From assembly GCF_044324875.1 (NCBI RefSeq), contig NZ_CP172185.1: a stretch of 64,000 nucleotides of DNA; one strand, 5' to 3'. Each line of letters starts with the position of its first letter. The stretch's first letter is position 1. Origin of the DNA: Escherichia coli (GTDB taxonomy: Bacteria; Pseudomonadota; Gammaproteobacteria; Enterobacterales; Enterobacteriaceae). Shown here piece after piece: positions 2,638-11,995 of this stretch. A program made the position numbers and the translations under genes. The notes beneath the pieces were generated by a model, which worked only from the letters and a program-made list of their open reading frames with translations, was not told where the DNA came from and made no database searches.

Positions 2638-4104
2638 TTAAATTTTGAGGGTGTTTAATAGCGCCTGATGCGCGCCGAATTGTGCGATTTGTTGCCAGGC
2701 TTGTTCGATGGTCTGCACAAAATGCGGGTTATCTGGCAGATCATCACCGAAAACTTCACGCAGGGAAAGCAGGGCGGTGACGCGTTGTTCACTGCTGCTG
2801 CCCGCAACAAGTTCGCGAATTTTATCGCTAAGCGGATCGCGAACATCAATGGCATTTCCGGCATCATCAACGCCGCTGACGTAACGCATCCAGCCTGCAA
2901 CGCCTAATGCCAGCATCGACCAGTCCGTTTCGCGCCCCAGATGTATGCGAATACCTGCCAGCATGCGTTGCGGTAATTTCTGGCTACCATCCATTGCGAT
3001 TTGCCAGGTCTTATGTTTCAGCGCCGGATTAGCAAAACGTGCAATTAACTTATCCGCATATTGTGTTAAATCGACATCTTTAATTCGCAGTGTTGGCGCT
3101 TGCTCATCCAGCATTAATGTTCTGGCGGCATGGCGAAATGCGCGATCCTGCATGCAATCACTGATATGGGCGAATCCTGAGAGGTAACCCAGATAAGCGA
3201 GAAAAGAGTGGCTGCCATTAAGCATACGCAGTTTCATCTCTTCCCATGGCAGGACATCATTCACCATTTGTACACCTGCGACTTCCCAGGCAGGACGCCC
3301 AGCGACGAAGTTATCTTCCACCACCCACTGGATAAACGGTTCGCAGCTAATCGCGCAGGGATCATTCACCCCCAGATGCTGGCTGATTTCCGCTAGTGAT
3401 TCGTCGGTTGCAGCCGGAACAATGCGGTCGACCATAGTTCCCGGAAAACTGACGTGTTCTTTTATCCACCCGGCGAGTTCTGGCGAACGTTTTTCTGCCA
3501 TTCCCAGCACCGCGTTTTTCACCACATGGCCATTGTCGGGAATATTGTCGCAGGAGAGCACGGTAAACGGTGTAAGGCCGCGCTCACGGCGGCGTTTCAG
3601 TGCTTCGACGAGAATTCCCGGTGCGGAGTGAGGTTCTTCAGGATTTTGAAGATCGTGAATAATCCGCGGATTGCTGGTGTCGAGTGCACCGGTGGCTGGG
3701 TCAATACAATAGCCTTTTTCGGTAATCGTCAGGGAAACAATTGCCACCTGTGGCTCGCAAAATTTCTCAATAATTGCCGCTAAGGAATCCAGTTTTGCAT
3801 TCAGGCATTCGTGAACGGCACCGACAATTATCGCCTGATTGCCGTCCGCACCTTTCTCCAGCACGGTATATAAATGGTTCTGTGCGCGGAGCTGGCTCAT
3901 CAGTTGATCGCCGCTGAACAAGCTGATCTCACAGATTCCCCAGTCGCCGCCCTGGGCATTCAGCACACGATCGGTCAGTAACGCCTGATGTGCGCGGTGA
4001 AAGGCTCCGAAGCCAAAATGAACGATACGTGATTGCAACTGCTGGCGATCGTAGCGTGGAGCGTGTACATGATGCGGGAGCGTAGCGGAGGCGATTGTAT
4101 TCAT
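2638..4104 (-). CDS. yeiQ: Mannitol dehydrogenase-family oxidoreductase
   Basis: Track ORF 491 aa; start moved to MNTIASA (488 aa); long-chain mannitol DH-like sequence. Confidence 0.8.
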   Translation of the reverse strand: MNTIASATLPHHVHAPRYDRQQLQSRIVHFGFGAFHRAHQALLTDRVLNAQGGDWGICEISLFSGDQLMSQLRAQNHLYTVLEKGADGNQAIIVGAVHECLNAKLDSLAAIIEKFCEPQVAIVSLTITEKGYCIDPATGALDTSNPRIIHDLQNPEEPHSAPGILVEALKRRRERGLTPFTVLSCDNIPDNGHVVKNAVLGMAEKRSPELAGWIKEHVSFPGTMVDRIVPAATDESLAEISQHLGVNDPCAISCEPFIQWVVEDNFVAGRPAWEVAGVQMVNDVLPWEEMKLRMLNGSHSFLAYLGYLSGFAHISDCMQDRAFRHAARTLMLDEQAPTLRIKDVDLTQYADKLIARFANPALKHKTWQIAMDGSQKLPQRMLAGIRIHLGRETDWSMLALGVAGWMRYVSGVDDAGNAIDVRDPLSDKIRELVAGSSSEQRVTALLSLREVFGDDLPDNPHFVQTIEQAWQQIAQFGAHQALLNTLKI

Positions 4105-6752: not shown

Positions 6753-6767
6753 TTGAAACGTTTCAGC
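6753..6767. promoter_or_regulatory. Cra (FruR) operator O1 of fruBKA promoter
   Basis: Palindrome TTGAAACGTTTCAGC upstream of fruB. Confidence 0.7.
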
Positions 6768-6818
6768 GCGATCTTGTCTTTAACCCTAAGCCAGGTTGGC
6801 GCTTTTTTTCTCATAGAA

Positions 6819-6853: not shown

Positions 6854-7984
6854 ATGTTCCAGTTATCCGTACAGGACATCCATCCGGGCGAAAAGGCCGG
6901 AGACAAAGAAGAGGCGATTCGCCAGGTCGCTGCGGCGCTGGTGCAGGCCGGTAATGTAGCTGAAGGCTACGTCAATGGCATGCTGGCGCGCGAACAGCAA
7001 ACCTCTACGTTCCTCGGCAATGGTATTGCTATTCCACACGGCACTACCGACACCCGCGATCAGGTGCTGAAAACCGGCGTTCAGGTATTTCAGTTCCCGG
7101 AAGGCGTCACCTGGGGTGACGGCCAGGTAGCGTACGTGGCGATCGGTATTGCTGCCAGCTCGGATGAACATTTGGGCCTGCTACGCCAGCTGACCCACGT
7201 ACTGAGCGATGATTCCGTTGCTGAACAACTGAAGTCAGCAACAACAGCAGAAGAACTTCGCGCATTGCTGATGGGCGAAAAGCAGAGTGAGCAGCTGAAG
7301 CTCGACAACGAAATGCTGACGCTGGATATCGTCGCCAGCGATCTGCTGACTCTTCAGGCGCTGAACGCTGCACGTCTGAAAGAAGCGGGGGCAGTTGACG
7401 CCACTTTCGTCACCAAAGCCATCAATGAACAACCGCTGAACCTCGGACAGGGCATCTGGCTGAGCGATAGCGCCGAAGGCAATCTGCGTAGCGCGATTGC
7501 GGTAAGCCGTGCGGCAAATGCTTTTGATGTGGACGGCGAAACGGCAGCCATGCTGGTGAGTGTGGCGATGAATGACGATCAGCCCATTGCGGTTCTTAAG
7601 CGTCTCGCTGATTTGTTACTCGACAATAAAGCTGACCGCTTGCTGAAAGCGGATGCGGCAACGTTGCTGGCGCTGCTGACCAGCGATGATGCGCTGACCG
7701 ACGACGTGTTAAGCGCGGAGTTTGTGGTGCGCAATGAACACGGCCTGCATGCTCGTCCAGGTACCATGCTGGTCAATACCATTAAACAATTTAACAGTGA
7801 TATTACCGTGACAAACCTTGATGGCACCGGCAAACCGGCAAACGGACGTAGTCTGATGAAAGTTGTGGCACTTGGCGTTAAGAAAGGTCATCGCCTACGC
7901 TTTACCGCCCAGGGTGCAGATGCTGAACAGGCGCTGAAAGCCATTGGCGACGCTATCGCTGCTGGTCTTGGGGAGGGCGCATAA
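6854..7984 (+). CDS. fruB: PTS fructose-specific IIA/FPr multiphosphoryl transfer protein
   Basis: 376 aa, [24 protein letters not shown]..., C-terminal HPr-like domain. Confidence 0.93.
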
Positions 7985-8922
7985 TGAGCAGACGTGTTGC
8001 TACTATCACCCTTAATCCGGCTTATGACCTTGTTGGTTTCTGCCCGGAAATTGAACGCGGCGAAGTGAACCTGGTGAAAACCACCGGTCTGCATGCGGCG
8101 GGTAAAGGCATCAACGTGGCCAAAGTATTAAAAGACCTGGGAATTGATGTCACCGTTGGCGGCTTCCTCGGTAAAGACAATCAGGATGGTTTTCAGCAAC
8201 TGTTCAGCGAGCTGGGCATTGCCAACCGTTTCCAGGTTGTACAGGGGCGCACCCGAATTAACGTTAAGCTGACGGAAAAAGACGGCGAAGTGACCGACTT
8301 CAACTTCTCGGGTTTTGAAGTCACTCCCGCCGACTGGGAACGCTTTGTGACTGATTCTCTGAGCTGGCTCGGTCAGTTCGATATGGTCTGTGTCAGCGGA
8401 AGCTTACCGTCAGGCGTCAGCCCGGAAGCGTTCACCGACTGGATGACTCGCCTGCGTAGTCAGTGTCCTTGCATTATCTTTGATAGTAGCCGTGAAGCGT
8501 TAGTAGCAGGTTTGAAAGCGGCACCGTGGCTGGTGAAACCTAACCGCCGCGAGCTGGAAATCTGGGCAGGCCGTAAACTGCCTGAAATGAAAGATGTGAT
8601 TGAAGCTGCGCATGCGCTGCGTGAACAAGGTATCGCGCATGTCGTTATTTCACTGGGTGCCGAAGGCGCGCTTTGGGTTAATGCCTCCGGCGAATGGATC
8701 GCCAAACCACCGTCAGTCGATGTCGTAAGCACCGTTGGCGCAGGGGATTCTATGGTTGGTGGCCTGATTTATGGCTTGCTGATGCGTGAATCCAGTGAAC
8801 ACACACTGCGTCTGGCGACAGCTGTTGCAGCCCTGGCGGTAAGTCAAAGCAATGTGGGTATTACCGATCGTCCGCAGTTGGCCGCAATGATGGCGCGCGT
8901 CGACTTACAACCTTTTAACTGA
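7984..8922 (+). CDS. fruK: 1-phosphofructokinase
   Basis: 312 aa pfkB-family kinase; start overlaps fruB stop (ATAATG). Confidence 0.93.
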   Translation: MSRRVATITLNPAYDLVGFCPEIERGEVNLVKTTGLHAAGKGINVAKVLKDLGIDVTVGGFLGKDNQDGFQQLFSELGIANRFQVVQGRTRINVKLTEKDGEVTDFNFSGFEVTPADWERFVTDSLSWLGQFDMVCVSGSLPSGVSPEAFTDWMTRLRSQCPCIIFDSSREALVAGLKAAPWLVKPNRRELEIWAGRKLPEMKDVIEAAHALREQGIAHVVISLGAEGALWVNASGEWIAKPPSVDVVSTVGAGDSMVGGLIYGLLMRESSEHTLRLATAVAALAVSQSNVGITDRPQLAAMMARVDLQPFN

Positions 8923-8938: not shown

Positions 8939-10630
8939 ATGAAAACGCTGCTGATTATTGACGCTAATCTCGGTCAGGCACGCGCCTATATGGCGAAGAC
9001 CCTGCTGGGCGCGGCGGCGCGAAAAGCAAAACTGGAAATCATCGACAATCCGAACGACGCTGAAATGGCGATTGTTCTCGGTGATTCCATCCCGAACGAC
9101 AGCGCGCTGAACGGTAAAAATGTCTGGCTGGGCGATATTTCCCGGGCAGTTGCGCACCCTGAGCTGTTCCTGAGTGAAGCCAAAGGCCATGCGAAACCTT
9201 ACACTGCGCCGGTCGCTGCGACAGCACCGGTTGCCGCCAGCGGTCCGAAACGCGTAGTTGCGGTGACTGCTTGCCCGACTGGCGTAGCACACACCTTTAT
9301 GGCGGCTGAAGCCATTGAAACCGAAGCGAAAAAACGTGGCTGGTGGGTGAAAGTTGAAACCCGTGGTTCTGTTGGCGCGGGTAATGCAATCACTCCCGAA
9401 GAAGTCGCAGCAGCGGATCTGGTGATTGTGGCGGCAGATATCGAAGTGGATCTGGCGAAATTTGCTGGTAAACCGATGTATCGCACCTCTACCGGTCTGG
9501 CGCTGAAGAAAACCGCGCAGGAACTGGATAAAGCGGTTGCTGAAGCAACGCCGTATGAACCGGCGGGCAAAACTCAAACAGCGACCACTGAAGGTAAGAA
9601 AGAGAGTGCAGGCGCTTATCGTCACTTGCTGACGGGCGTCTCTTACATGCTGCCGATGGTCGTTGCAGGTGGTCTGTGTATCGCGCTTTCTTTTGCTTTT
9701 GGTATCGAAGCGTTTAAAGAGCCGGGTACGTTGGCAGCGGCGCTGATGCAGATTGGTGGTGGTTCAGCCTTTGCGCTGATGGTGCCGGTACTGGCAGGTT
9801 ATATTGCCTTCTCCATTGCCGATCGTCCGGGCCTCACGCCGGGTCTGATTGGCGGTATGCTGGCGGTCAGCACTGGTTCTGGCTTCATTGGCGGTATTAT
9901 TGCGGGCTTCCTGGCTGGTTACATTGCGAAGTTAATCAGTACGCAATTGAAACTGCCACAGAGTATGGAGGCGCTGAAACCGATTCTGATCATTCCGCTA
10001 ATTTCCAGTCTGGTGGTCGGTCTGGCGATGATCTACCTGATCGGTAAACCGGTTGCTGGCATTCTCGAAGGGTTGACTCACTGGCTGCAGACCATGGGGA
10101 CTGCGAATGCGGTTCTGCTGGGGGCGATCCTCGGTGGCATGATGTGTGCTGACATGGGCGGTCCGGTAAACAAAGCAGCGTACGCATTCGGTGTGGGTCT
10201 GCTGAGTACTCAAACCTATGGCCCGATGGCGGCGATTATGGCGGCAGGTATGGTGCCACCGCTGGCAATGGGCCTGGCAACAATGGTGGCGCGTCGCAAA
10301 TTCGACAAAGCGCAGCAGGAAGGGGGCAAAGCCGCTCTGGTACTGGGACTGTGCTTTATTTCGGAAGGTGCAATTCCGTTTGCTGCTCGTGATCCGATGC
10401 GTGTGCTGCCGTGCTGTATCGTGGGTGGGGCGCTGACTGGCGCAATCTCAATGGCGATTGGTGCGAAACTGATGGCACCGCACGGTGGTCTGTTTGTTCT
10501 GCTGATCCCTGGCGCGATTACGCCGGTATTGGGTTACCTGGTAGCCATTATTGCCGGTACGCTGGTGGCGGGTCTGGCCTATGCCTTCCTGAAACGTCCG
10601 GAAGTGGACGCAGTAGCGAAAGCAGCGTAA
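8939..10630 (+). CDS. fruA: PTS fructose-specific IIB'BC component
   Basis: 563 aa, N-terminal IIB domains then multi-TM IIC. Confidence 0.93.
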   Translation: MKTLLIIDANLGQARAYMAKTLLGAAARKAKLEIIDNPNDAEMAIVLGDSIPNDSALNGKNVWLGDISRAVAHPELFLSEAKGHAKPYTAPVAATAPVAASGPKRVVAVTACPTGVAHTFMAAEAIETEAKKRGWWVKVETRGSVGAGNAITPEEVAAADLVIVAADIEVDLAKFAGKPMYRTSTGLALKKTAQELDKAVAEATPYEPAGKTQTATTEGKKESAGAYRHLLTGVSYMLPMVVAGGLCIALSFAFGIEAFKEPGTLAAALMQIGGGSAFALMVPVLAGYIAFSIADRPGLTPGLIGGMLAVSTGSGFIGGIIAGFLAGYIAKLISTQLKLPQSMEALKPILIIPLISSLVVGLAMIYLIGKPVAGILEGLTHWLQTMGTANAVLLGAILGGMMCADMGGPVNKAAYAFGVGLLSTQTYGPMAAIMAAGMVPPLAMGLATMVARRKFDKAQQEGGKAALVLGLCFISEGAIPFAARDPMRVLPCCIVGGALTGAISMAIGAKLMAPHGGLFVLLIPGAITPVLGYLVAIIAGTLVAGLAYAFLKRPEVDAVAKAA

Positions 10631-10640
10631 TAAAAGGTGT

Positions 10641-10671
10641 GTTACAGGGCAGAAATTTCCTGCCCTGTAAC
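10641..10671 (+). terminator. Perfect 12-bp-stem hairpin immediately after fruA stop
   Basis: gttacagggcag-aaatttc-ctgccctgtaac. Confidence 0.5.
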
Positions 10672-10787
10672 ATTTGATGCGCGCAAAGAGAATGACCGGT
10701 TTGTGAATGTAATTTTATGAATTTAAATGGTTTTATCTTTTAGTAGAAACCTGAAACCTTCATCAAACACTAAGGTTATTTCCTCAA

Positions 10788-10814
10788 GGGCAGATTAATT
10801 TCTGCCCTTTTTTA
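10788..10814 (+). terminator. Rho-independent terminator-like hairpin plus T-tract
   Basis: gggcagattaatttctgccc followed by ttttttatt. Confidence 0.6.
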
Positions 10815-11053
10815 TTGTTCCTGTTCTGTGCATCCCGTCACAAATTCCCCGTTTTTATAATTCAGGCATTTAATCGCGTTTTGTGAGCCTGCTCAAATCT
10901 GCCCATTTTGCCTCTCTGGCGGTAATTTACTTTACGTAAAACATGCATACTATGAGCACATGTTTAAATATGAACACATGTTTAAACCGTCTTTGCAGTA
11001 TCTATATTCTTGTGGATTGACAGGGTGGGTAATTTTTTACCAGAGGACGTGCT

Positions 11054-11995
11054 ATGCGCGAAAAGGATTATGTCGTAATTATAGGTTCGGCGAATATTGA
11101 TATCGCCGGATATTCACATGAATCATTAAATTATGCGGATTCAAATCCAGGTAAAATAAAATTTACGCCTGGTGGAGTCGGGCGAAATATTGCACAAAAC
11201 CTGGCGTTGCTGGGTAACAAAGCCTGGCTACTGAGCGCAGTAGGCAGTGATTTTTATGGTCAATCGCTGCTAACGCAAACCAATCAATCTGGCGTTTATG
11301 TCGATAAATGCCTGATTGTGCCGGGAGAAAATACGTCGAGCTATTTATCATTACTCGATAATACCGGTGAAATGCTGGTTGCTATAAATGACATGAATAT
11401 TAGCAACGCTATTACAGCTGAATATCTCGCACAGCACCGTGAATTTATTCAAAGGGCAAAGGTCATTGTCGCGGACTGTAATATCAGTGAAGAGACACTG
11501 GCATGGATTCTGGATAATGCCGCCAATGTACCTGTATTTGTCGATCCGGTTTCGGCATGGAAATGTGTCAAAGTGCGTGACCGTCTAAATCAGATCCACA
11601 CCCTGAAGCCAAACCGCCTTGAAGCGGAAACCTTGAGTGGGATTGCTTTGTCAGGGCGTGAAGATGTGGCAAAAGTTGCTGCCTGGTTCCATCAACATGG
11701 CCTGAACCGACTGGTAATGAGCATGGGCGGCGACGGCGTTTATTACAGTGATATCAGCGGTGAAAGTGGTTGGTCTGCGCCGATCAAAACCAATGTCATT
11801 AATGTTACCGGAGCGGGCGATGCCATGATGGCGGGACTTGCTTCGTGTTGGGTAGACGGAATGCCGTTTGCCGAATCTGTTCGTTTCGCACAGGGATGTT
11901 CGTCAATGGCGCTCTCCTGTGAATACACCAATAACCCCGATTTATCGATTGCCAACGTTATATCGTTAGTGGAGAACGCAGAATGTCTGAATTAA
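11054..11995 (+). CDS. psuK: Pseudouridine kinase (pfkB family)
   Basis: 313 aa MREKDYVVIIGSANIDIAG... Confidence 0.88.
   Translation: MREKDYVVIIGSANIDIAGYSHESLNYADSNPGKIKFTPGGVGRNIAQNLALLGNKAWLLSAVGSDFYGQSLLTQTNQSGVYVDKCLIVPGENTSSYLSLLDNTGEMLVAINDMNISNAITAEYLAQHREFIQRAKVIVADCNISEETLAWILDNAANVPVFVDPVSAWKCVKVRDRLNQIHTLKPNRLEAETLSGIALSGREDVAKVAAWFHQHGLNRLVMSMGGDGVYYSDISGESGWSAPIKTNVINVTGAGDAMMAGLASCWVDGMPFAESVRFAQGCSSMALSCEYTNNPDLSIANVISLVENAECLN

Follow-up and report, generated by a model that had tools for sequence, protein, structure and literature searches.

Where does the fruBKA transcript of Escherichia coli end, and what is the DNA that lies between the two strong hairpins found downstream of fruA? 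The window, i.e., the whole stretch of 64,000 nucleotides that was analyzed, is part of the E. coli chromosome and carries on its plus strand, in order, fruK (7984-8922), fruA (8939-10630), psuK (11054-11995), and psuG. In the window, the intergenic region between fruA and psuK (b2167 and b2166 in K-12) is 423 bp long. The K-12 RefSeq annotation places nothing between these two genes and, as the original prediction had stated, no plus-strand gene between the hairpins. That prediction regarded the second hairpin as an apparently orphan terminator, and proposed that the interval could produce a small RNA or small peptide, or that the two hairpins could form a dual terminator insulating psuK. The first hairpin is referred to here as HP1, the second as HP2, and the interval between them as the spacer (Table 1).

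Table 1. Positions of the features between fruA and psuK in the 64,000-nucleotide window.
Feature	Position	Strand	Basis
Tandem stop codons of fruA (TAATAA)	10628-10633	+	FruA ORF 8939-10630, with a second in-frame TAA directly after it
HP1, probable copy of the fruA terminator stem-loop, lacking a U-tract	10639-10673	+	Fold energy; core match to the outgroup terminator
Spacer (112 nt, 33% G+C, Escherichia-specific), probable part of the fruBKA 3'UTR	10674-10785	+	Single copy; no promoter-like site; fold z -0.24
HP2, probable intrinsic terminator of fruBKA (stem-loop 10786-10809, U6 10808-10813, RNA 3' end 10813)	10786-10813	+	Terminator scan; fold; Term-seq; orthology
Inferred psuK promoter (-35 TTTACT, 10926-10931; 16-nt spacer; -10 TACTAT, 10948-10953)	10926-10953	+	Adaptive SNP; coordinate mapping

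Both hairpins are real and do not reflect chance. The core GGGCAG-N4-10-CTGCCC occurs exactly twice in the 64-kb window, once in HP1 and once in HP2, compared with an expectation of 0.03 occurrences. The perfect 12-bp stem that had been described after the fruA stop (GTTACAGGGCAG/CTGCCCTGTAAC, 10641-10671) was confirmed; it begins 8 nt past the double stop and is part of a 14-bp stem (arms 10639-10652 and 10660-10673) closed by the 7-nt loop AAATTTC. The folding energy of HP1 is -24.0 kcal/mol, against -10.1 +/- 2.4 kcal/mol for shuffled sequences (z -5.8), and none of 200 shuffles was equally stable. Downstream of the stem there is only UUUGAUG. HP1 has no U-tract directly after the stem (the tail, UUUGAUGCG or UUGAUGCG, has a U-tract score of 2.0-2.7, compared with 4.2-5.1 for HP2), and it was not called by the plus-strand terminator scan. 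The scan did call HP1 on the minus strand; a bidirectional terminator was considered and rejected (U-tract score 0.49, with no minus-strand 3' end listed). HP2 was reported by the same scan as the classic terminator that had been noticed in the sequence. It consists of AAGGGCAGA-TTAATT-TCTGCCCTT, with arms at 10786-10794 and 10801-10809 that pair in a 9-bp stem (five G-C pairs) around a 6-nt loop, followed by T6. Its fold has an energy of -15.5 kcal/mol (z -5.8).

Published RNA data place a transcript end in HP2. The curated Term-seq list of Adams et al. 2021 (PMC7815308, Supplementary file 1) contains a 3' end at NC_000913.3 2259536 on the minus strand, with a score of 28730.8. The flanking sequence puts this end on the last U of HP2 at window 10813. 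The predicted T-tract is present, as T6, and ends one position before the 10814 first given for it. The label "orphan" was assigned to this end by the Term-seq pipeline because of its distance from the fruA stop; the class means only that an end lies >50 nt from an annotated gene end (PMC7815308). The end appears once in the file, and its position there assigns it to the tab for M63 glucose; in the LB tabs, the entry next to 2263539 is 22447xx or 22393xx. A 3' end confined to M63 would be that of full-length fruBKA mRNA and not that of a small RNA made constitutively. At HP1 (K-12 22596xx-22597xx), the curated lists for the three conditions contain no 3' end, although weak ends below the threshold are possible. 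The bicyclomycin table of the same study lists 2259533 with a Rho score of 3.5; reads in the 800-nt windows change from 44 to 43 upstream and from 28 to 97 downstream. Because downstream reads rise with bicyclomycin, some Rho-dependent event occurs near or after HP2, and this signal could reflect Rho acting on read-through or psuK-leader transcripts. A full-text search found no paper naming the fruA 3'UTR or the fruA terminator, and the SMRT-Cappable-seq and TERMITe supplements contain no fruA entry.

A second 3' end in this operon, a very strong one, lies in the fruB 5' leader (window 6754-6810). Term-seq places it at K-12 2263539 on the minus strand (window 6810), 44 nt before the fruB ATG. 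The sequence ahead of it is GGCGC-T7, and the end is found in all three growth conditions, with scores of 9.6 for an intrinsic terminator and 0.26 for Rho. These features suggest that transcription stops early in the fruBKA 5'UTR, or that a short leader RNA is made there. The end lies between two palindromes that we take to be Cra-operator-like.

The nature of HP2 becomes clearer when fruA is compared across genera. Eighty genome loci were fetched with the C-terminal half of FruA, 75 of them from outside Escherichia. A single terminator, GGGCAGAG-loop-CTCTGCCC-T6-8, is found 15-28 nt after the fruA stop in 34 of the 75 non-Escherichia loci (Citrobacter, Enterobacter, the Klebsiella oxytoca group, Leclercia, Silvania, Pluralibacter, Atlantibacter, and Pseudescherichia), whether or not psuK is the downstream gene. 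In outgroups that do have psuK downstream, the intergenic region measures 277-327 bp; in Escherichia loci of the window type, the window included, it measures 410-423 bp. From the terminator to psuK, the outgroup sequence and the E. coli sequence that follows HP2 are collinear. The 5' flank of HP2 (ATTTCCTCAA) is identical to the corresponding flank in C. sedlakii. Over 10 Escherichia sequences, the HP2 stems are 98-100% identical and 100% paired, and the loop varies. HP2 therefore has three properties of an intrinsic terminator: a stem-loop with a U-tract, an in vivo 3' end within that U-tract, and conservation at the same operon end across the Enterobacteriaceae. It is probably the Rho-independent terminator of fruBKA, ending a 3'UTR of 183 nt. 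The orphan status proposed for HP2 did not hold up, as the comparison of loci identifies it with the ordinary conserved fruA terminator.

The same comparison points to an event specific to Escherichia. Here, two copies of a unit made up of 5' flank and stem-loop border a lineage-specific spacer, and only the second copy has kept the U-tract. HP1 occupies the ancestral position, 16 nt after the fruA stop. When we aligned its core (GGGCAGAAATTTC-CTGCCC) with the outgroup terminator (GGGCAGAGATTTCTCTGCCC), 18 of 20 positions agreed and one gap was needed. The 5' flank of HP1 agrees with Citrobacter flanks at 12-14 of 18 positions. On these alignments, HP1 appears to be a second, paralogous copy of the operon's own terminator stem-loop inside the fruBKA 3'UTR. 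HP2 would have been moved about 150 bases from fruA by an Escherichia-specific insertion that carried a stem-loop copy without a U-tract. The inner 8-9 bp of HP1 are invariant in 10 Escherichia sequences except for a G-U wobble in K-12 and a U-G pair in E. whittamii. One compensatory change (A-U to C-G) is seen within E. coli, and the outer 5 bp decay in the other Escherichia species. The conserved inner core and the compensatory pair faintly hint at a constraint that a pure relic would not need, yet the pattern could also arise without selection, through template-switch correction of quasi-palindromes.

The spacer occurs in two unrelated forms. The window-type spacer is present in 4218 of 5426 complete E. 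coli genomes, in single copy per genome, as well as in E. whittamii and Escherichia sp. E1V33; its average pairwise identity over 10 Escherichia sequences is 83%. A second type is found in 1194 of the 5426 E. coli genomes (22%; e.g., the ST131 strain ZH193) and in E. albertii. This second haplotype keeps both hairpins, and its spacer of about 148 nt is mostly a dispersed repeat, which we take, from the E. coli REP consensus, to be a REP-L-REP (BIME) element. The second haplotype is deeply diverged from the last ~30 nt of fruA to psuK (positions 3072-3290 of locus L003 and 3233-3450 of locus L008), a divergence that would represent either trans-specific polymorphism or introgression.

Several possible sources of the window-type spacer were considered and rejected. 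A degenerate REP/BIME homologous to the B2/E. albertii spacer is plausible by eye, but the alignment equals that of shuffles (z 0.3-0.7). The window-type spacer is also not a REP/BIME element in its own right, being single copy and no more similar to that repeat-bearing spacer than shuffles are. An origin by decay of a tandem fruA 3' end was likewise rejected, as the DNA local alignment is no better than for shuffles; a tblastn comparison of the FruA C-termini of all fetched loci with the spacer returned nothing meaningful, and a CCTGAAAC match noticed by eye as a trace of the fruA 3' end is due to chance. Alignment likewise rejected a copy of the downstream intergenic region, and the outgroup loci showed no significant similarity to the spacer. 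Mobile DNA was dismissed as a source: the spacer is single copy in E. coli and has no plasmid or phage match (five hits carry the label "plasmid", but the records measure 0.37-4.9 Mb, and three are as large as a chromosome).

Individual genomes add further observations on this interval. The spacer tolerates disruption, with an IS1 at about window 10696 in E. coli 203740. In Escherichia sp. MOD1-EC7003, a deletion extends from the spacer into psuG, and both HP2 and psuK are lost. Some genomes carry a RefSeq annotation of a 49-aa hypothetical protein (WP_001300063.1) on the minus strand across HP2 (window 10723-10869). The corresponding ORF has two in-frame stops in the window, and the protein is probably spurious, an annotation artefact.

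The spacer is explained neither by tandem duplication of the 3' end of fruA nor by a degenerate REP. Candidate mechanisms for the stem-loop duplication are homology-facilitated illegitimate recombination between two fruA-terminator alleles and template switching at the palindrome. That one pair of GGGCAG stem-loops encloses two unrelated inserts (112 nt and about 148 nt) raises the possibility that DNA has integrated at the fruA terminator repeatedly, and not through one ancient accident. The two stem-loop copies would then be scars of hairpin-targeted, target-duplicating insertion or recombination. This reading, which relies on an analogy with att-like palindromic cores or with template switching at quasi-palindromes, is an outside chance. 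In eight loci from Enterobacter, Lelliottia, and Huaxiibacter, a hairpin (GTCGGGTGGCG...CCCGAC), presumably REP-like, follows fruA and is itself followed by a different terminator (AAAAAAGCCGGG...CCCGGCTTTTTTT). Since these genera reached a hairpin and a terminator by other routes, the "hairpin plus terminator" arrangement after fruA arose more than once.

Downstream of HP2 lies the inferred psuK promoter. Mouse-gut and 1,200-day stationary-phase evolution experiments yielded a recurrent adaptive SNP (A to C at 2257444) whose site is described as the promoter region of psuK (psuKp). With a conversion between K-12 reference versions that we infer, the SNP maps to window 10928, where it changes TTTACT to TTGACT; the mapped K-12 base is A, as required. 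The psuK promoter accordingly appears to lie about 115 nt downstream of HP2, and HP2 would therefore separate the two transcription units. Two direct 17-nt repeats, ATGA(G/A)CACATGTTTAAA, are found at 10952-10987, overlapping the -10 element and the likely start site. These repeats are conserved in Citrobacter, Enterobacter, Klebsiella, and Leclercia, and are probably an operator for a regulator.

The explanation that we favor, with good confidence, combines these elements: HP2 as the terminator, a duplicated stem-loop, and a 3'UTR of 183 nt. A rearrangement in the Escherichia lineage would have copied the stem-loop and about 10-18 nt of the 5' flank next to it, leaving the two copies separated by unrelated DNA of roughly 110-150 nt. 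It is this insertion between the copies that would cause the fruBKA mRNA to end 183 nt after the stop. RNA polymerase would read through HP1, whose U-tract for release was lost or never present, and on through the AU-rich spacer, before terminating at the U6 of HP2, just upstream of a separate psuK promoter. HP1 would be a stable stem-loop of the 3'UTR and, at most, a block to 3'-to-5' exonucleases after cleavage in the spacer. In this limited sense HP1 may stabilize the mRNA.

Among the other explanations, the one that survives best is a 3'UTR-derived small RNA, although it is unlikely. Here RNase E would cut the AU-rich spacer, and a fragment consisting of part of the spacer, HP2, and the U-tract would bind Hfq and act as a regulator or sponge. 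The U6 tail and U-rich 5' flank of HP2 do resemble an Hfq-binding module, and the Term-seq peak (28730) is fairly strong. One chimera in the Hfq CLASH data (PMC7213987) involves the spacer (K-12 2259586-2259651 on the minus strand) under the label fruA 3'UTR, a label that also agrees with the favored explanation. The RIL-seq data of Bar et al. 2021 (PMC8175672) contain 42 chimeras of "fruA.psuK.IGR" (window 10631-11053), found in stationary phase only and with RprA as the one partner. In these chimeras, however, fruA.psuK.IGR is always first, which together with the single partner is target-like; its SIC score is -1, and its sRNA score is 0.00103, compared with a candidate threshold of 0.1. 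The RIL-seq fragment may instead be the psuK 5'UTR, as the best RprA pairing in a crude duplex scan, a weak one, adjoins the psuK ribosome-binding site (around 11010-11060) and is not in the spacer. This hints that RprA may target psuK. The spacer itself argues against a small RNA on two further counts: it has no stable or conserved fold (z -0.24, with essentially no covariation term in the alignment fold), and it has no conserved seed or sequence, given its mean identity of 83% and its replacement by unrelated sequence in 22% of E. coli genomes.

A tandem dual terminator, in which HP1 would stop some transcripts and HP2 the rest to give tight insulation of psuK, is less likely still. Two strong hairpins do stand in series, the first (-24 kcal/mol) followed by UUU, and the psuK promoter is just downstream. 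The half of this proposal that concerns HP2 was upheld, since HP2 is a working terminator upstream of the inferred psuK promoter and separates fruBKA from psuK. The half that concerns HP1 is doubtful: only UUU follows its stem, its U-tract score is well below that of HP2, no curated 3' end is listed there in any condition, and one terminator suffices in the outgroups.

An independent small gene, encoding either a small RNA or a 23-aa peptide (10727-10798) from its own promoter in the spacer and with HP2 as its terminator, has very little probability. An ATG-initiated ORF does span 10727-10798 and end within HP2, and the published table classes the 3' end as orphan. Against this, a promoter scan found no sigma-70-like site between the hairpins on either strand, and no Shine-Dalgarno sequence precedes the ATG. 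The 23-codon ORF is not conserved: K-12 lacks its stop, E. coli SCPM-O-B-8794 lacks its ATG, and both E. whittamii and Escherichia sp. E1V33 carry a frameshift in it. An Rfam search of 10000-11600 with permissive filters, a check that had been proposed at the outset, gave chance-level matches only, all with E above 1. The LB lists do not contain the 3' end, which is confined to the condition in which full-length fruBKA mRNA would be expected.

Least probable of all, to the point of being hardly credible, is an attenuator in which HP2 would be a regulated terminator within a psuK 5' leader and the arms of HP1 and HP2 would pair alternatively: the 3' arm of HP1 is complementary to the 5' arm of HP2 (duplex -14.3 kcal/mol, formally allowing a 1:2 / 2:3 / 3:4 layout) and bicyclomycin raises psuK-side reads, but the terminator stays with fruA in genera without psuK downstream, the adaptive mutation in the psuK promoter is 115 nt past HP2, the fruBKA promoter is the sole promoter upstream of HP2 in the scan, and the predicted fold keeps HP2 even with the 5' arm of HP1 blocked, with no antiterminator alternative predicted. 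A leader-peptide version of psuK attenuation was also rejected (no promoter-like site, a leader ORF that is not conserved, and persistence of HP2 in constrained folds).

With HP2 as the fruBKA terminator, a false lead is removed: an E. coli Term-seq table in wide use classes as "orphan" a 3' end that would simply belong to the fruBKA terminator. For annotators, this 3' end becomes assignable to fruBKA, with a 3'UTR of 183 nt. The intergenic region between psuK and fruA, which is repeatedly selected in gut-colonization and long-term stationary-phase evolution, would consist of two separate parts: an upstream part with the fruBKA 3'UTR and terminator, and a downstream part with the psuK promoter and likely operator, which is the site of adaptive mutation. 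The only unusual aspect of the locus is evolutionary, i.e., a duplicated terminator stem flanking haplotype-specific inserts. Although of minor interest, this arrangement would offer a small, clean example of bacterial 3'UTR growth.

In most respects, HP2 resembles the intrinsic terminators found at the ends of Enterobacteriaceae operons. It shares with them a G+C-rich stem of 9 bp, a 6-nt loop, a U6 tract with the RNA 3' end inside it, and conserved stems with a variable loop, and it appears orthologous to the fruA terminator of other genera. Unlike the usual operon-end terminator, HP2 is 183 nt rather than about 40 nt from the stop codon, a distance attributable to the Escherichia-specific insertion. 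The fruA 3'UTR can also be compared with CpxQ, SdhX, and MalH, which are Hfq-binding small RNAs derived from 3'UTRs. The likeness is that the candidate fragment ends at the mRNA's own intrinsic terminator, has a U-rich stretch before the hairpin, and shows some Hfq cross-linking. In contrast to these three small RNAs, the fruA candidate has no conserved seed, a very low RIL-seq sRNA score, a target-like orientation in chimeras, and a spacer that is dispensable in 22% of genomes. HP1 is closest to the 3'UTR stabilizers of the REP/BIME type, which are likewise very stable hairpins without a U-tract, situated right after a stop codon and upstream of the real terminator. A hairpin read as REP-like occupies the same place at fruA in Enterobacter and Lelliottia, and the spacer of the other E. 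coli haplotype contains the repeat read as REP-L-REP. Unlike a REP element, HP1 appears to be a single-copy paralogue of the operon's own terminator stem, with a putative role in stabilizing the fruBKA mRNA.
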